Shown: positions 1,851 to 43,306, numbered from the stretch's first letter. The stretch is 64,000 nt of DNA from an uncultured bacterium (GCA_947085985.1 CAMTYL010000004.1:150885-214884), one strand, 5' to 3'. Translations and numbers: made by a program. The notes: generated by a model not told the origin, from the sequence alone.

Positions 1851-2656
1851 TGGAATACACTGACGAACAAATCATTGCTGCTATAGATGCCGCGCCGGTG
1901 CCGGTGCAGGAGACGCTTCGTAGCTCAGACACGAACAAAGCGTTGGCTGATATTGGGGCTGCGCACAATCTCCACATAGACCAGATTGGTGATTTAGCAG
2001 AAATTAACAGAAATCTTCTCGTTGGTCTTGTGGCGCCAGCTGAGATGTATGGAGAACTTGTTGAGATTGGAGTATCTGCTGACGAAGCGCGCCAGATAAT
2101 GTCTGAAATTAACACTAAAATCTTTGTTCCTTTGAGGGAGAAAATGCGGAGTTCTACTGAAGACTCGCCGACAACTGCTCCAGCGCCGCTTCCAAAGCCA
2201 GCGCCAGTATCGCAAGCACAGCCGTTACCGCAGTACCCCGCAGCACCTCTTCAACAAGAACACGTCACCCGTCCCTTGTCTGGTTTGGCGCCACAGGTTG
2301 CTCCACCAGCACTGCTGTCGCCCGCTCCCCACACGCAAGTGTTTACACCAGCAAGCGGGTGGCCGGGTGCTCCGGCAGGGAACTGGCAACCGGCGGCCGC
2401 GGTACACGTGTATGTTCCGGGCCCAGCACCTGTACACCCTCAAATGGTGGCGCCTGCCACACCTCCTGCTCAACAACCAATTTACACACCCGCCTCTGTA
2501 GAGGAACTTCCTATCCAACCAACACGCCAACCTGAACAGGTGGTACGAACCGTACGTCCGATTCCAGCACCTCCTCCTAATTTGCCGGGCACAACGCCAG
2601 AGCGACCCCTAGAGAAGAACTACGTAGCAGATCCGTATCGCGAGCAGCCGCTTTAG
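1850..2656 (+). CDS. hypothetical protein with Pro/Ala/Gln-rich C-terminal half
   Basis: ATG overlaps the upstream stop (TAATG). Structured N-terminus (MEYTDEQIIAAIDAAPVPVQ...) then a P-rich low-complexity tail. Confidence 0.45.
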   Translation: MEYTDEQIIAAIDAAPVPVQETLRSSDTNKALADIGAAHNLHIDQIGDLAEINRNLLVGLVAPAEMYGELVEIGVSADEARQIMSEINTKIFVPLREKMRSSTEDSPTTAPAPLPKPAPVSQAQPLPQYPAAPLQQEHVTRPLSGLAPQVAPPALLSPAPHTQVFTPASGWPGAPAGNWQPAAAVHVYVPGPAPVHPQMVAPATPPAQQPIYTPASVEELPIQPTRQPEQVVRTVRPIPAPPPNLPGTTPERPLEKNYVADPYREQPL

Positions 2657-2691
2657 TTTGGTGATTATTCGTTCTCTGATACGCTATACAC

Positions 2692-3126
2692 ATGTCTGAA
2701 AACCCTCCTCGCAATGAGTCCGGCCCCAATTCACCAGCTGAAGCCGCGCCGACACCTTCTTTAGAAGAGACCGGGGAGCGCAACGCAGTCCCGCCAACTC
2801 CAGAAGCACCGGCGCAAGCAATTGCTGAAAGACGCGAACGTTTGGCTCGCACAGCCGTGGAAGCGACACCTAACCAAGCCCCCGCGCAACCAGCAGTAGC
2901 TGCAACTGTCCCGGTAGCTCCTACTAGGGGACCTTTTGGGAAAATCATCCATGGCACGGGCCGAGTAATGGGTAAGGGTTTTAAGATGGGCGCTGGTTTT
3001 CTTCATGGTTTTTTTGGATACATATTTGTACATATGATTTGGCACGGACTTAAGAATCTTCCTTCCTTTGGGGGAGGGGGTGGTGGCTCAAAACCAAGTG
3101 GCGGAGGGGGAGGTGGTCATCACTAA
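2692..3126 (+). CDS. hypothetical small protein with Gly-rich C-terminus
   Basis: ATG at 2692. Hydrophobic segment FLHGFFGYIFVHMIWHG followed by GGGGGGSKPSGGGGGGHH. Confidence 0.4.
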   Translation: MSENPPRNESGPNSPAEAAPTPSLEETGERNAVPPTPEAPAQAIAERRERLARTAVEATPNQAPAQPAVAATVPVAPTRGPFGKIIHGTGRVMGKGFKMGAGFLHGFFGYIFVHMIWHGLKNLPSFGGGGGGSKPSGGGGGGHH

Positions 3127-25808: not shown

Positions 25809-26468
25809 GTGATTTATCTTTTCTGTGGAAGCGACACGAATAAGGTTCGGGCCAAGGCCTTTCAGTGGGTAGAGGCTGCGCGCAGTAAGGCGCCAGACGC
25901 GGTGTATGTGCGACTTACGCCCGAGATGGTGACACCAGAAATGGTGCGCGGCGCGCTCAGTAGTCAGGGACTCTTTTTTTCTAAGTCACTCATCCTTCTA
26001 GACGACCCTTTTTCGCAAAGTGAAACAAGTGAGACGGTACTTGAGCTTCTAGAGGAACTCGCAGCGTCGCAGAATCCCGTTGCCATTCTTGCGCCAAAGC
26101 TTTTGGCCGCGAGAGTGAAAAAGGTAGAAGCAAAAGCAGAGAAGGTATTCAAAATTGATGTTGATAGCGCGCGCCTGCCTGCCGGCAGGCAGGGGTTTAA
26201 TAGTGCGCTCGTAAATGCGCTCGCGAACAAAGACAGCGCAGGGCTGTGGAAAGAATTACATAAAGCGTACCGACAGGGAGACGCGCCCGAACTAGTGCAC
26301 GGACTACTCCACTGGAAAGCACGCGACATGATGCAAAAAGGGAATCCGAAGTGGGGGAAGGACGGAGCGCGTACACTCTCGCGCGAACTGATTGAGTTGG
26401 TGAGCGATTCTAGAAACGGGGACTTGGCGCTTAGGGAGGGGTTGGAGCGGTTTGTGTTAAAAGTGTAG
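25809..26468 (+). CDS. DNA polymerase III delta subunit-like protein (HolA-like)
   Basis: N-terminus IYLFCGSDTNKV resembles HolA. GTG start 13 nt after a TATACT box. Confidence 0.45.
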   Translation: MIYLFCGSDTNKVRAKAFQWVEAARSKAPDAVYVRLTPEMVTPEMVRGALSSQGLFFSKSLILLDDPFSQSETSETVLELLEELAASQNPVAILAPKLLAARVKKVEAKAEKVFKIDVDSARLPAGRQGFNSALVNALANKDSAGLWKELHKAYRQGDAPELVHGLLHWKARDMMQKGNPKWGKDGARTLSRELIELVSDSRNGDLALREGLERFVLKV

Positions 26469-26478
26469 ATATCAGCAC

Positions 26479-26675
26479 GTGCGCCTACCTGGGACGTGAT
26501 TACACTTCTCGCTCCTTACAGGAGCAGTACACCTTGTGGAGATTTTGCTTCATGACTTCGCAAAATCTGCTCACAAGGTCTTCGAGCCCAGGACGCAGGC
26601 TTCCCAAGCCTGCTTAGGCGCACAAATTAAAGAACCGCCAGTGGGGCGGTTCTTTAATTTGTGCGCCTACCTGGG
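26479..26675 (-). repeat. tRNA-3'-associated structured element, Lys copy
   Basis: 15-nt direct repeat GTGCGCCTACCTGGG at 26479-26493 and 26661-26675. 23-bp hairpin GGCGCACAAATTAAAGAACCGCC-agtg-GGGCGGTTCTTTAATTTGTGCGCC overlaps the tRNA 3' end. GCAGGCTT-ccc-AAGCCTGC hairpin. Terminal GTG-TAAT-CAC hairpin. Confidence 0.6.
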
Positions 26676-26734
26676 CTCGAACCAGGGACCGTCTCCTTAA
26701 AAGGGAGCTGCTCTACCAACTGAGCTATAGGCGC
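26662..26734 (-). tRNA. tRNA-Lys (anticodon TTT)
   Basis: Hand-folded cloverleaf: GCGCCTA acceptor, D-arm GCTCAGTTGGTAGAGC, anticodon loop CTTTTAA, T-arm CCTGG-TTCGAGC-CCAGG. Confidence 0.85.
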
Positions 26735-26752
26735 ATGCTCACTGTTATACCG

Positions 26753-27754
26753 CTAATAGGTGTATAGGTCTACGGTTAGCCCATTCTCGTCCAGTAATCT
26801 AATAGCTTCACGCGAGTCTTTCCAGAGCTCTCCGTACCGCATGGTGGAGTCATTCCTGCGGGTTATTTCGGTGCGCCCCAGATAGATGCGCCAGATATCG
26901 CTATAGAAAGATGAGCTGTAGCGATAGTTCTCCACACAACCATTGTACGTGAGGCGTGAGTAGATAAGCGAAAGACAGTTGGCTGAGGTGCGGCTATCTT
27001 CCTGTGGGGTCACACACATGCTCGTATTTCTCACTAAGTTGTAGCAGGCAGTTTCTTTGTACGGGTTTCCGGTGAAGTGCCTATCAAACTCGGACGAAGG
27101 GGAAGGGCAGCGGCGACCAAGAGCAGGAGAGAAACTTTGATTCACTCCCAAATACCCCGTGCACATGTTTTCTGCAAAAGAGCCCCCTATAGGCGATTCT
27201 CCAGTTATCACGTACGCACGCTCACCTGGATACAGCACAATAGGTTCTGAAGCATTAAGTGTGCCACTTGTCGGAAGCTTTGTGCCTTGTGGAATTGTCG
27301 CACTCCTGTCGGTTGCTACAGAGACAAGCTTCCACCCAGTAATGGTTATGGGCTCTGTGGCGCTTGAGGACGCCTGAAGGACAAGGTACTCATGCTGCGG
27401 GTCGGTGGACGAAACATTCCCGCCACTGATAGTCACCAGGCCGCGCTTTGGAGAAGGGGTGCTGAACAGTGCCTGGCGCTTAGACTCTATCTGCAGATTA
27501 CCCAACTGGTACTCAATACTTTGCACACTGCTGCGCACTTCTGCAGAGCGGATACTTGGCAGGCCCCCCGTCACGTTGATGCCACCCTTATACCAATCGG
27601 TGTCACCATAGCCAACTTGAGTCTGTCCAACGCCCGTAACGGGGGTGATGAATGGCCCCGAGAATGAAATAGGATTGCTCGGGCCACCACCAGCAAGCCA
27701 CAAGACAAAGAAAAAGACCATCACTCCGAGAAAAAAGAGGAAGTCGCTTTGCAT
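26753..27754 (-). CDS. secreted/membrane-anchored hypothetical protein
   Basis: N-terminal hydrophobic segment FLFFLGVMVFFFVLWLAGG. 333 aa, Cys-containing C-terminal region. Confidence 0.45.
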   Translation of the reverse strand: MQSDFLFFLGVMVFFFVLWLAGGGPSNPISFSGPFITPVTGVGQTQVGYGDTDWYKGGINVTGGLPSIRSAEVRSSVQSIEYQLGNLQIESKRQALFSTPSPKRGLVTISGGNVSSTDPQHEYLVLQASSSATEPITITGWKLVSVATDRSATIPQGTKLPTSGTLNASEPIVLYPGERAYVITGESPIGGSFAENMCTGYLGVNQSFSPALGRRCPSPSSEFDRHFTGNPYKETACYNLVRNTSMCVTPQEDSRTSANCLSLIYSRLTYNGCVENYRYSSSFYSDIWRIYLGRTEITRRNDSTMRYGELWKDSREAIRLLDENGLTVDLYTY

Positions 27755-29949: not shown

Positions 29950-30139
29950 CTCGGTAGGAACCGGCGAGTACGCCTTTCGGTCACACATAAATCTCTGCTA
30001 AGATTTTGCGCGACCCCCACTCGCCGTCGACACGGCTCCGTGCTTCGATTCCTACACGTGAGCCTCCCAGGCTCACTCGAGAGCACCAAATGAAAACAGC
30101 CCTAACTGGGCTGTTTTCATTTGGTGCTCTCGGTAGGAA
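29950..30139 (-). repeat. tRNA-3'-associated structured element, Arg-GCG copy (element D)
   Basis: 11-nt direct repeat CTCGGTAGGAA at 29950 and 30129. 24-bp hairpin GAGAGCACCAAATGAAAACAGCCC-taact-GGGCTGTTTTCATTTGGTGCTCTC (30079-30131). GAGCCT-ccc-AGGCTC hairpin. Core shares GAATCGAA, GCGAGTGGGGGTCGCG and CGAAAG-GCG-TACT-CGC with the other copies. Confidence 0.6.
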
Positions 30140-30896: not shown

Positions 30897-30950
30897 ATAA
30901 ATGTAATACTAGCACTCGTGAGTTGATGTAGATGGAGTAATGCACCAAAA

Positions 30951-30980
30951 GATAAAACCCGCCATGTGGCGGGTTTTATC
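30951..30980. terminator. bidirectional terminator after tRNA-Ser
   Basis: GATAAAACCCGCCA/TGGCGGGTTTTATC perfect palindrome. Confidence 0.65.
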
Positions 30981-30985
30981 TTTTG

Positions 30986-34856: not shown

Positions 34857-35043
34857 CAAAAATGAAAAACTAAGACGGCGTCTTAGTTTTTCTATTTTTT
34901 GTAGGCACCAGCAGGAATCGAAAGCCGGAGCGATACGCGAGCAGCAGCGAGCGTCGCGAGGTGGGGTCGCGTGCATTTGCGAGTGACGACGAGCAAATAA
35001 CAGGTGACCGAAAGTGGTACTCCACGGTTCCTGCTCCAGGCAC
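34857..35043 (+). repeat. tRNA-3'-associated structured element, Arg-TCT copy (element A)
   Basis: AAAATGAAAAACTAAGACG hairpin overlaps the tRNA 3' end. Core has GAATCGAAAGCCGGAGCGAT, GCGAGGTGGGGTCGCG, GCGAGTGACGACGAG and CGAAAG-TGG-TACT-CCA-CGG. Ends with a degenerate copy of the tRNA 3' end (TTCCTGCTCCAGGCAC). Confidence 0.6.
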
Positions 35044-35052
35044 ATAAACACG

Positions 35053-35080
35053 AAAAGGACCGGCAACGGCCGGTCCTTTT
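35053..35080. terminator. bidirectional terminator after tRNA-Val
   Basis: AAAAGGACCGGC-aac-GCCGGTCCTTTT. Confidence 0.65.
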
Positions 35081-35089
35081 CTGTGCGGG

Positions 35090-37556: not shown

Positions 37557-37571
37557 GAGCTCGTATGCCAT

Positions 37572-37656
37572 GCCCAGGTGGTGAAATTGGTATACACGCA
37601 TCCTTGAGGTGGATGTGGCTTCGGCTGTGGAGGTTCAAGTCCTCTCCTGGGCACCA
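37572..37656 (+). tRNA. tRNA-Leu (anticodon GAG), CCA encoded
   Basis: Anticodon loop TTGAGGT, long variable arm TGGCTTCGGCTGT, T-arm GGAGG-TTCAAGT-CCTCT, acceptor GCCCAGG/CCTGGGC. Confidence 0.85.
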
Positions 37657-37852
37657 AATGAAAAAACGCCTTCGGGCGTTTTTTCATTTGGTGCCCAGGA
37701 AGCAGGGTGTCTGCACACCCTGCAGGAGGACTTGAAAGCCGGAGCGATGCTTTGCTCAGCAGAGCAAAGCCGCGAGGCGGGGCTGCGACCGAGCCGAGTG
37801 ACGACGAGGCGAGAGTTGTAGCCAAAAGCGTAATCGCGTGTCCTCTCCTGGG
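37653..37852 (+). repeat. tRNA-3'-associated structured element, Leu copy (element B)
   Basis: 25-bp hairpin CCTGGGCACCAAATGAAAAAACGCC-ttcg-GGCGTTTTTTCATTTGGTGCCCAGG. GCAGGGTG-tctgca-CACCCTGC hairpin. Core carries GGAGGACTTGAAAGCCGGAGCGAT, GCGAGGCGGGG, GAGTGACGACGAG and AAAGCG-TAAT-CGC. Direct repeat GTCCTCTCCTGGGC at 37639 and 37839, exactly 200 bp apart. Confidence 0.65.
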
Positions 37853-37898
37853 CCGCATTTCATCATTTTCCGAAAAACGTGCTATAACGCATCTACAT

Positions 37899-37972
37899 GG
37901 CGGCTATAGTTTAGTGGTAAAACTCAGGTTTGTGGAGCCTGTATCGAGAGTTCGATTCTCTCTAGCCGCCCA
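37899..37972 (+). tRNA. tRNA-His (anticodon GTG) with G-1
   Basis: G-1 followed by GCGGCTA acceptor and discriminator C. Anticodon loop TTGTGGA. T-arm GAGAG-TTCGATT-CTCTC. Confidence 0.85.
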
Positions 37973-38175
37973 GATATGAAAACCGCCTTTGGCGGCTTTT
38001 TCATATCTGGGCGGCTAAGCAGGTAATCTGCATTACCTGCGAGAGAGAATCGAACGCCGGAGCATGTTTCTCTCAGTAGAGAGAAACAGCGAGGCGGTGC
38101 CCAGAGCAAGCCGAGTGACGACGAGGCGCAGACTCGCGGGCGAAAGTGGTAATCCACGTTTCTCTCTAGCCGCCC
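37973..38175 (+). repeat. tRNA-3'-associated structured element, His copy (element C)
   Basis: Hairpin TAGCCGCCCAGATATGAAAACCGCC-tttg-GCGGCTTTTTCATATCTGGGCGGCTA. GCAGGTAAT-ctgc-ATTACCTGC hairpin. Core carries GAGAGAGAATCGAACGCCGGAGC, GCGAGGCGGTG, GAGTGACGACGAG and CGAAAG-TGG-TAAT-CCA-CG. 17-nt direct repeat TTCTCTCTAGCCGCCCA at 37956 and 38159. Confidence 0.65.
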
Positions 38176-38286
38176 AAATCAGCCAACCCAGAAGTGAATA
38201 CTTCCGGGTTGTTGCTGTTTGCAGAAGCTAGCTTGTCTTTTGGTCTGGTTGCACATACCATTCCCTTCGGAAAAGGGGGTATCAAC

Positions 38287-38859
38287 ATGTACAAAGTTTT
38301 TGCAGGGTTCAAGGTTCCCGAAATCTTGAACCCGTTTGCGGAAAATATCGACCGACTCGTGGTGGTACACGGCGGACCTGTCGTGCGGCGTAAACACCCA
38401 CTACACGTCACCGTCATGGCGCCACGAACCGTACGAGATCAGCAGCGCCATGAGCTCGAAGCGTTTGCACAGGAGTTCAATACTGACTACGGAAATGTGC
38501 CGTGTCGTATTGCGTCCCTTCAGCGCTACGAGCACCGCAGCAAGAAGTTCTTTGTTGCAAGTCTCACGGGGCAGCAATTGAGCGACACCATTGATCACTT
38601 TCACCACGAGCTGCATAGGAGATTTTCCTTCACACGGCGTCAACATGAGGGAACAAAGCCTCACATAACGCTGGTCAGCTCCAAGCACACGCGAAGGCAA
38701 GAGGTGTTTGACCGCGTGGTCAGTGCCGCTCACAGTATTGAGTACCCGCGAGAGCCTCTCCGTCTCCCGCACATCGTTCTTCATGTCCACAAGGAGGGAA
38801 CAGAATTACCGCACGTTTCGCCGCCACCAGGTGAACCGCACGCTGGGTGGCAGCCATAG
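38287..38859 (+). CDS. 2H phosphoesterase superfamily protein (LigT / 2'-5' RNA ligase-like)
   Basis: Two H-x-T/S-x motifs (HVTVM; HITLVS) at the expected spacing. AAGGGGG RBS before ATG 38287. Confidence 0.6.
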   Translation: MYKVFAGFKVPEILNPFAENIDRLVVVHGGPVVRRKHPLHVTVMAPRTVRDQQRHELEAFAQEFNTDYGNVPCRIASLQRYEHRSKKFFVASLTGQQLSDTIDHFHHELHRRFSFTRRQHEGTKPHITLVSSKHTRRQEVFDRVVSAAHSIEYPREPLRLPHIVLHVHKEGTELPHVSPPPGEPHAGWQP

Positions 38860-43272: not shown

Positions 43273-43306
43273 ACGCAAAAACCTCCCAGCAGGGAGGTTT
43301 TTGCGT
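43273..43306 (+). terminator. intrinsic terminator
   Basis: ACGCAAAAACCTCCC-agca-GGGAGGTTTTTGCGT. Confidence 0.7.

Follow-up and report, generated by a model that had tools for sequence, protein, structure and literature searches.

A modular repeat-antisense cassette behind tRNA-Lys and related units in the 3' flanks of Patescibacteria tRNA genes

The 3' flank of a tRNA-Lys(UUU) gene from an uncultured bacterium holds a compact series of repeats and hairpins that recurs, in variants, behind tRNA genes of Patescibacteria (candidate phyla radiation [CPR] bacteria). We analyzed it at positions 26479 to 26675 of a 64,000-nucleotide stretch of DNA (GCA_947085985.1 CAMTYL010000004.1:150885-214884), hereafter the window. 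An earlier reading made without database searches (the sequence-only reading) had described a direct repeat, inverted copies, and hairpins here and had left the strand of the tRNA gene unstated. All of these features are present, and the gene lies on the minus strand, so that the series constitutes its 3' flank (Table 1). In the tRNA-sense direction, the tRNA 3' strand is followed by a 25-bp hairpin, a small hairpin (P2), an arm complementary to the T arm (anti-T), a long hairpin, a UACUG/UGUAA hairpin, a GUG-UAAU-CAC hairpin, and a second copy of the gene's 3' end. The two copies of this direct repeat, X (GTGCGCCTACCTGGG on the given strand), are identical at 15 of 15 positions with a spacing of 182 nt. 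The three hairpins listed by the sequence-only reading are there, as is the inverted copy of GTGCGCCTA within the first, but the arms of that hairpin measure 25 nt rather than 23, and the local hairpins number five, GCTCC-TGTAA-GGAGC having been overlooked; beyond them are two long-range helices, P1 and P3. The inverted T-arm copy and the terminal GTG-TAAT-CAC hairpin were likewise found as described. No plausible open reading frame (ORF) lies inside the 182-bp unit, and the genes alongside are housekeeping genes.

The 25-bp hairpin has a GC-rich center with A-rich and U-rich flanks and looks by eye like a bidirectional terminator; a consensus terminator scan did not call it because its U-rich segment falls inside the extended stem. 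Its outer 9 bp consist of the tRNA-Lys acceptor 3' strand paired with an antisense copy (the anti-acceptor arm), which has alternative partners in the repeat search and the minimum free energy (MFE) fold: its own tRNA-Lys 3' strand or the distal repeat. Folded as RNA from the anti-acceptor arm to the repeat, the Lys unit has an MFE of -73 kcal/mol, compared with -47.8 +/- 3.9 for shuffled sequences (z, -6.5). In the MFE fold, the anti-acceptor arm pairs with the repeat over 9 bp (P1) and the anti-T arm over 6 bp (P3); P3 encloses three hairpins, and P1, P2, and P3 close a three-way junction on the tRNA-sense strand. The same junction around three hairpins is predicted for the window's His and Leu units (see below; z, -8.3 and -6.4, respectively). 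As modeled, the junction would recreate the resident tRNA's stacked acceptor/T-stem helix, the core taking the place of the T-loop. P2 (GCAGGCTT-ccc-AAGCCTGC on the given strand) belongs to a type shared by most family members, which have a GCA...UGC hairpin in this place; homologous P2 hairpins occur in loci L041, L012, L045, and L062 and in type L loci, defined below.

Units of this kind are borne by five of the seven tRNAs in the window (Lys, Arg-GCG, Arg-UCU, Leu, and His). As the sequence-only reading held, the architecture is shared: the whole periphery of the Lys unit is common to the other four, which by eye run through a post-tRNA hairpin, an anti-acceptor arm and P2 (not at Arg-UCU), an anti-T arm, a core, a hairpin with a GUAAU or GUACU loop, and a repeat of their own tRNA's 3' strand. 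The four sister cores comprise GCCGGAGC, a variable hairpin (P4), GCGAGGCGG, and a long helix (P5/P6) capped by the loop CGAGUGACGACGAG; we call this class canonical. A covariance model of these cores gave no match at Lys, and the Lys core is therefore truly different, again as first described.

The Arg-UCU repeat matches its tRNA through the T-stem only (TTCCTGCT) and continues as CCAGGCAC, which is unable to pair with the tRNA 5' strand, and a GGCAC remnant stands ahead of the anti-T arm; judging from these sequences, the unit may be rearranged or half-converted from another tRNA. The two tRNAs with no cassette, Ser(UGA) and Val(UAC), have long symmetric hairpins with A-rich and U-rich flanks (30940-30985 and 35052-35081), which look like bidirectional terminators common to convergent genes.

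The Lys core represents a class of its own, which we call type L. The type L motif consists of the anti-T-loop sequence UYGAA, a long hairpin, UACUG-stem-UGUAA-stem, and then a repeat of the tRNA 3' strand, all of which the Lys unit has; the exact motif lies at 26512-26530. Besides L002, a near-identical copy of the Lys locus, TACTGCTCCTGTRAGGAG recurs in three other fetched loci. In L041, tRNA-Trp is followed by a unit with a core almost identical to that of Lys and with antisense arms (anti-acceptor and anti-T) and a repeat that all correspond to tRNA-Trp; in L021, a type L variant lies behind tRNA-Leu. A metagenome scan yielded at least 120 type L loci, and among the matches listed, 75 of 123 motif instances have a same-strand tRNA 86 to 220 nt upstream, with 34 anticodons represented, a median repeat of 12 nt, and a median antisense match of 12 nt. 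Across an alignment of 70 type L homologs (A5), covariation supports the basal pairs of the long hairpin (pair 23:82: AU in 45, CG in 19; pair 30:73: GC in 32, CG in 29). Variants of the small hairpin, found by architecture alone, keep the UGUAA loop constant on different stems (GCUCC/GGAGC, GACCA/UGGUC, GAAAC/GUUUC, GGUUC/GAACC, and GGCGA/UCGCC). The covariance model R2 scores the Lys unit at 73 bits, a value obtained by construction, as the window copy is in the R2 seed. The near-identical core at tRNA-Trp, the metagenome matches, and the covariation place the Lys element firmly in a second core class, built into the shared periphery.

This result changes the interpretation given by the sequence-only reading, which took the Lys unit for a divergent family member and suggested that the architecture, not the core sequence, is what is conserved. 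The Lys core is neither a decayed form of the canonical core nor diverged, unconstrained filler; it belongs to a separate class that is itself strongly conserved and covarying. Periphery and both core types are therefore conserved, and the units are modular. From sequence comparison, type L and the GCCGGAGC/GAGUGACGACGAG class of the other four window units appear to be interchangeable cores. The small UGUAA hairpin may also exist as an independent module: an IMG/VR contig classed as viral has a CUACUGCUCCUGUAAGGAG hairpin (L074, 3990-4020, minus strand) flanked by a tRNA-like sequence on one side and a tRNA-Ser(ACU) gene on the other.

A pattern search of one genome per species recovered 69 loci with a canonical core, nearly all from Patescibacteria (Saccharibacteria, Kaiser-, Nomura-, Woese-, Uhr-, Komeili-, and Zambryskibacteria, and Paceibacterota); a few short, high-GC matches look like chance. 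Patescibacteria genomes with this core number about 60, and a tRNA nearly always precedes it; in about 50 of the 69 loci, a same-strand tRNA, of many isotypes, lies 35 to 100 nt upstream. Their repeats reach 22 nt, from T-loop position 56 to the CCA end, and often start exactly 14 nt past GACGACGAG, and an antisense copy of T-loop and T-stem lies directly 5' of CCGGAGC. In an alignment of 62 canonical cores (A3), from which covariance model R1 was built, compensatory change is strong in P4 and the P6-closing pairs (27:34, 30 double changes; 73:88, 38), while GCCGGAGC, GCGAGG, and GAGUGACGACGAG are invariant and G.A/A.G arrangements stand in tandem. In a comparison of CCGGAGC/GCGAGG with the kink-turn, the alignment and fold accommodate tandem G.A/A.G between Watson-Crick pairs, but a single G forms the bulge, where a kink-turn has three nucleotides; the Lys unit has no such segment. 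Model R1 found 80 copies in the 69 loci, several in tandem; an unfiltered R1 scan of the window returned three strong copies and one weak copy and nothing at 26479-26675. In a "type B" subgroup, the core directly follows the hairpin and has a short 3' arm, CCACA; the pairing partner of this arm is the terminal part of the 3' arm of the hairpin, itself complementary to the generic tRNA end GCACA. Two independent insertions, of 56 nt (L049, 2039-2183, plus strand) and ~40 nt (L071, 2284-2411, minus strand), interrupt the GAGUGACGACGAG loop, which is invariant elsewhere and may be an insertion site itself or tolerant of extensions.

Both classes are strand specific. In 60 of 61 canonical cores (mean difference, -10 kcal/mol) and in 62 of 70 type L cores (-3.4 kcal/mol), the fold is more stable for the tRNA-sense strand than for its complement, and two G.U pairs are needed to form the common canonical P5 helix, GGUCGCGAC:GUUGUGACC; the tRNA-sense strand is therefore the functional one. 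On the basis of these folds, it would act as RNA or, less likely, as single-stranded DNA.

Among 253 tRNAs in the fetched loci, 81 are followed by a 3'-end repeat of at least 10 nt together with an antisense copy of at least 8 nt, compared with 0 of 253 in the upstream control, and the downstream architecture is therefore not due to chance; 113 of the 253 have neither architecture nor core. The Lys unit shows the entire superfamily periphery, with a same-strand upstream tRNA, antisense arms, a direct repeat, and a junction closed around the core. The unit is always co-oriented with the tRNA. Repeats range from 4 to >20 nt, with variable starts (position 56, position 57, or the start of the T-stem 3' strand); they are usually perfect, even where nothing pairs with them, and extend beyond the paired segment into the trailer of the gene itself. 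The CCA occurs only in the repeat in 7 cases and only in the gene in 3, and status is concordant in 45. Because the repeat usually copies the trailer of its gene in place of a mature CCA end, it is made at the DNA or precursor level. The antisense arms complement the T-stem 3' strand, often off by 1 to 2 nt.

Arms and repeat follow the local tRNA even where the rest of the unit is shared. Within one metagenome-assembled genome, the units behind tRNA-Leu-GAG (L012) and tRNA-Lys-CUU (L045) are ~95% identical over a stretch that begins just past the tRNA hairpin, takes in P2 and the core, and ends with a 37-nt hairpin beyond the repeat. Only the anti-T arm and the repeat depart from this identity, and both match the tRNA of their own unit. 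Core pairs with 92 to 98% identity occur at different tRNAs, and a core and its nearest neighbor share an anticodon in only 3 of 48 cases for the canonical class and 10 of 73 for type L. From these comparisons, arms appear to be re-matched faster than cores diverge.

The units are patchily distributed and behave like insertions. We located orthologs of the Lys locus via homologs of the neighboring 333-aa protein. In L197 (73% protein identity) and L202 (70%), the next gene comes immediately after tRNA-Lys and the element is absent; in L199 (66%), tRNA-Lys is followed by 116 nt of unrelated or decayed sequence. The element is thus missing from all three and no conserved leader stands in its place, which disposes of the alternative raised by the sequence-only reading, that the segment could be an unrelated conserved gene leader. 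In L196 and L200 (80 to 81% protein identity), tRNA-Lys is near the contig end and its 3' flank lies outside the sequence seen; a 96-aa ORF occupies the opposite strand between an LTD-domain gene and tRNA-Lys (L196, 3037-3327; L200, 3094-3384). Empty sites are also found for tRNA-Arg(GCG), which in L197 and L198 directly abuts its native terminator, one that also serves the S20 gene; the cassette of the window lies exactly between the CCA end (...GAGCACCA) and this terminator, AAAAGAAAAACCCC. In L049, from a close relative, the His core and anti-T arm come after the native flank that in the window follows the repeat, and a 56-nt insertion interrupts the invariant canonical loop.

Multiple units may share one site. 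At least three units with different cores lie behind one intron-containing tRNA in L071, type L and canonical units are mixed behind tRNA-Trp in L041, nested units occur in L028 and L072, and perfect tandem units have periods of 179 and ~161 nt (L108 and L117); truncated and interrupted copies are also found. In L050 (~2900-3030, minus strand), a canonical unit directly follows the stop codon of rplL (L7/L12-like), with a repeat of the last 18 nt of the gene (one mismatch) and a partly complementary 5' arm, and the architecture is therefore not restricted to tRNAs. The L071 array (2200-2860, minus strand) follows a gene with a tRNA-like 3' end and an odd T-loop, GTCAGCA, that neither ARAGORN nor Rfam calls as a tRNA; a group-I-intron-like AAGATATAGTCC element precedes it.

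Table 1. Positions of the Lys unit's parts and of the sister cassettes in the window (sequences in tRNA-sense orientation)
Feature	Position	Strand	Basis and remarks
tRNA-Lys(UUU) gene	26661..26734	minus	ARAGORN; Rfam tRNA, 68.3 bits
Repeat X, copy 1 (final 15 nt of tRNA-Lys)	26661-26675	(-)	T-stem 3' strand, acceptor 3' strand, discriminator, +1 base
Perfect 25-bp hairpin, 5-nt loop	26615..26669	(-)	Arms 26615-26639 / 26645-26669, 100% complementary
Anti-acceptor arm GUGCGCCUA, 5' strand of P1	26615..26623	(-)	Repeat search; MFE fold; inverted GTGCGCCTA
P2 hairpin, GCAGGCUU GGG AAGCCUGC	26595..26613	(-)	Between both antisense arms; preceded by one A
Anti-T arm CCUGGGCUCGAA, 5' strand of P3	26581..26592	(-)	Versus 26670-26681, 12/12; complements T-loop and T-stem 3' strand; GU before arm
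Long imperfect hairpin of type L core	26532..26578	(-)	Arms 26532-26548 / 26560-26578
UACUG and GCUCC-UGUAA-GGAGC hairpin, type L signature	26511..26530	(-)	Motif search; hairpin at 26511-25
GUG-UAAU-CAC hairpin just ahead of repeat	26496..26505	(-)	Common to four other window copies; GU between hairpin and repeat
Distal direct repeat, X copy 2, CCCAGGUAGGCGCAC	26479..26493	(-)	Repeat search, fold; 3' strands of P3 and P1
Cassette behind tRNA-Arg(GCG)	29950..30121	(-)	Reduced canonical core without GAGUGACGACGAG loop; R1 25.3 bits, weak match 29978-30044
Cassette behind tRNA-Arg(UCU)	34858..35043	(+)	Canonical core 34922-35009; R1 78.7 bits; without P1, P2
Cassette behind tRNA-Leu(GAG)	37657..37853	(+)	Canonical core 37736-37824; R1 89.7 bits
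Cassette behind tRNA-His	37972..38176	(+)	Canonical core 38054-38142; R1 74.6 bits

In the reading that we favor, with moderate confidence in the whole, the Lys interval is one intact unit of a modular ~150- to 200-nt cassette in the 3' flank of Patescibacteria tRNA genes. The order of such a unit is X, a hairpin, often an anti-acceptor arm and P2, an anti-T arm, a three-hairpin core, and a second X, with the antisense arms paired with the second X. The family is characterized by common membership, a covarying and strand-specific fold, linkage to tRNAs, arms matched copy by copy, patchy presence, and modularity. The unit would be a nonautonomous insertional element landing between the tRNA 3' end and the native terminator. 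Its antisense arms would serve as a guide choosing the target by base pairing, the perfect repeat would be the duplicated or recombined target, and the conserved cores would offer a handle for putative trans-acting machinery. The order X - spacer - anti-X - core - X could be the product of a small circle, carrying an X:anti-X stem, joined to the chromosome at X. The arms might be rewritten by guide-first insertion with later compensation, by templated correction of quasi-palindromes, or by the swapping of cores between resident arms. Transcription as a tRNA 3' trailer is probable for many copies. In compact copies, tRNA and core are separated by only a short hairpin that lacks a U-tract, and a terminator comes after the repeat, a layout that implies cotranscription with the tRNA; the terminator-like hairpins of the window copies point the other way, and the evidence on cotranscription is mixed.

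Several observations weigh against this insertional reading. The terminator scan, which calls native terminators in the window, also called the Arg-UCU and His hairpins equivalent to the 25-bp Lys hairpin, which stand between the tRNA and the cassette body; if these hairpins terminate, transcription of the body would need read-through. The Lys unit itself has no terminator after its repeat. The copies have no constant terminal inverted repeats and no target duplication of fixed length, and clustering of 3,613 ORFs from ~190 loci returned housekeeping families only, with no transposase, integrase, or reverse transcriptase enriched and none inside a unit. The canonical pattern has no match in viral contigs. 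No excised circle or population-level polymorphism was directly observed, and the reading does not itself explain the re-matching of the arms. Finally, core nucleotides that are near-invariant across orders could equally fit a cellular RNA function. Among the clustered ORFs, a small YraN/UPF0102-like endonuclease-fold ORF lies near cassette-bearing tRNAs in 14 of the ~190 loci (e.g., L123, 1728+) and is the only nuclease-like family that stands out; its recurrence is probably conserved synteny with a tRNA.

A cellular RNA function is the substance of the strongest rival, which we consider possible, if rather unlikely: a resident, nonmobile, cis-acting 3'-trailer RNA, cotranscribed with the tRNA, that mimics the acceptor/T helix for tRNA maturation or quality control. 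RNase P, RNase Z, or the CCA-adding enzyme, for example, could take such a trailer as a substrate or be drawn off by it as a decoy, and a switch is possible because the arms pair with either the tRNA 3' strand or the repeat. Invariant co-orientation with the tRNA, the layout of the compact copies, the strand-specific fold with its G.U pairs, and core nucleotides that are invariant in distant lineages all suit this idea, and arms that match the local tRNA where the rest is 95% identical could reflect selection in cis. It is harder to reconcile with the absence of the element from orthologous tRNA loci in relatives, with the 113 of 253 fetched tRNAs and two of seven window tRNAs that do without it, and with tandem, nested, truncated, and interrupted copies. 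The unit behind the protein gene rplL, the terminator-like hairpins ahead of the body in window copies (called for Arg-UCU and His), and the use of two unrelated cores on one periphery also argue against it. Another reading, unlikely but not negligible, treats the units as programmable guide RNAs or DNAs, in which either core would present two antisense arms that recognize the 3' strand of a tRNA gene or precursor; a putative Patescibacteria enzyme would then insert the cassette or process or repair the tRNA, and the arms would be rewritten to re-target it.

The strand-specific pairing, with G.T in place of G.U, would also fit folded DNA. In a scheme that we consider doubtful, the molecule is single-stranded DNA whose X:anti-X stem forms a hairpin recombination site mimicking the tRNA-gene duplex, and a host recombinase integrates a small single-stranded circle or imported DNA. 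The folded single-strand attachment sites of CTXphi (attP(+)/XerCD) and integrons (attC/IntI) leave the order target - loop - inverted arm - cargo - target, and X - spacer - anti-X - cargo - X is the topology expected from a circle with a folded X:anti-X attachment site; tandem arrays of different units at one X and repeats that copy the gene's own trailer rather than the mature CCA end agree with it. Nonetheless, no recombinase is linked to the units across ~190 loci, the start of the repeat varies (position 56, 57, or the T-stem 3' strand start) in a way unlike a fixed crossover point, and each tRNA has its own arm sequence, in contrast to the constant recombinase-binding sequences of known folded attachment sites; protein-binding RNA is also the more usual setting for tandem sheared G.A motifs and an invariant 13-nt loop. 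Tyrosine-integrase elements classically leave a footprint of direct repeats that extend from the T-loop of a tRNA gene to its 3' end, and repeats of 15 to 22 nt covering the tRNA 3' part (15 nt at Lys) could be attL/attR scars of a prophage or island that integrated into the tRNA gene and was later deleted. We regard this origin as highly improbable given the conserved, covarying 90-nt structure between the repeats at hundreds of loci, the antisense target copy that is always present, the lack of any integrase remnant at the Lys unit or in ~190 loci, and the recurrence of the architecture at at least 34 different tRNAs.

Other candidates were tried and rejected. GAAA plus UGACGA resembles a hammerhead by eye, but C3 and stem II misfit, and permissive Rfam scans were empty for hammerhead, twister, other ribozymes, and the group I intron. 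A T-loop intron with the repeat as the true 3' exon fails on the upstream copy, which completes a normal tRNA, and on the distal copy, which is sometimes unpaired with the 5' strand (Arg-UCU). Retro-copying of a mature tRNA 3' end is at odds with repeats that normally carry the gene trailer, not CCA. If the anti-T arm were a copy of the T-stem 5' strand in a degenerate duplicated tRNA, it would not complement the 3' strand at T-stem G.U pairs, as it does, and P2 is unrelated to the D and anticodon arms. A lineage tied to one tRNA, by vertical descent or same-site transfer, is contradicted by core similarity that is almost independent of anticodon. Phage origin was dismissed likewise, the canonical pattern being unmatched in viral contigs and the type L motif represented there by one coding chance match and one inter-tRNA hairpin.

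Neither core class matches Rfam 15, in which only the tRNA passes the gathering threshold at Lys; permissive Rfam scans (E ≤ 10) of 26400-26760 and 37560-38260 gave the tRNA and meaningless microRNA-hairpin matches only, and full-text literature searches found no description of either class. The cassette family, widespread in Patescibacteria, is thus apparently undescribed. Its closest analogs are folded attachment sites, guide-RNA mobile elements, miniature inverted-repeat transposable elements (MITEs), and tRNA-like trailers, each of which misses at least one defining feature. The cassettes resemble the folded sites of CTXphi and integrons in that inverted target-like arms form a target-mimicking stem and leave the same integrated order, in their tandem arrays, and in strand-specific structure kept by covariation. 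However, cassette arms vary per locus around a conserved center, the reverse of attC, and there is no linked IntI/Xer-type recombinase, no fixed crossover, and no gene carried. The arms contain neither attC R''/R' GTTRRRY nor dif-like XerC/XerD sites; they copy the T-stem and acceptor strand, with the T-loop GTTCRA.

With guide-RNA elements (group II intron exon- and intron-binding sites [EBS/IBS], IS110 bridge RNA, IS200/605 TnpB omega-RNA, and the homing CRISPR RNA of type V-K CRISPR-associated transposons [CASTs]), the cassettes share a structured scaffold with target-matching segments, near-identical scaffolds carrying different such segments, and, with CAST V-K homing, the 3' region of tRNA genes as the target. 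They differ in having no encoded or nearby protein, a scaffold unlike those RNAs in Rfam 15, a size of only 150 to 200 nt, and sense and antisense copies of one target segment that pair with each other. MITEs, REP/BIME, Correia, and RPE elements are similarly small, noncoding, repeated, hairpin-rich, patchy, sometimes nested or tandem, and intergenic beside terminators. MITEs have constant terminal inverted repeats and short fixed duplications, whereas in the cassettes P3 varies with the target, the tRNA duplication is 15 to 22 nt, and the interior folds into a covarying structure conserved throughout a superphylum. tRNA-like structures and trailers (the YrlA/Y RNA module, mascRNA, and the 3'ETS-leuZ external transcribed spacer sponge) likewise offer a tRNA transcript 3' flank and an acceptor plus T stem-like helix and could be handled by tRNA-processing enzymes; the cassettes, by contrast, have no T-loop, D arm, or anticodon arm, copy their mimic from the neighboring tRNA, and are patchy and multicopy. 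We know of no bacterial repeat or guide system that explains sense and antisense copies of a neighbor combined with near-identical cores at different tRNAs. We view the family as small nonautonomous elements with an unusual target-matched, guide-like design, with a real chance of something more fundamental.

Two further features of the window lie outside the cassettes. The gene right after the His cassette (38194-38859, plus strand) encodes a LigT-like 2H phosphoesterase/2'-5' RNA ligase domain (Pfam E value, 1.9e-6); the presence of an RNA-end-healing enzyme gene beside two cassettes may be coincidence. A hairpin at 43275-43305 (plus strand), GCAAAAACCUCCCAGCAGGGAGGUUUUUGCG, is a weak partial match to the P4 part of R1 (11.8 bits; E value, 0.44), sharing the CAGCAG loop and nothing else, and is probably an ordinary terminator.

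The cassettes constitute two structured-RNA families with clear covariation and a simple genomic rule, in that they lie behind tRNAs. In genomes of ~1 Mb, they would be a substantial unannotated component, and they account for many "partial tRNA" repeats and spurious ORF calls by CPR tRNA genes, such as the 96-aa ORF at the L196 tRNA-Lys. If the RNA serves tRNA maturation, it would add to the tRNA biology of these RNase-poor organisms a layer specific to their lineage. If the arms are guides, the unit would be a compact, naturally reprogrammable targeting module, and were the guide reading true, the family would represent a new class of RNA-guided recombination or tRNA processing in minimal-genome bacteria.

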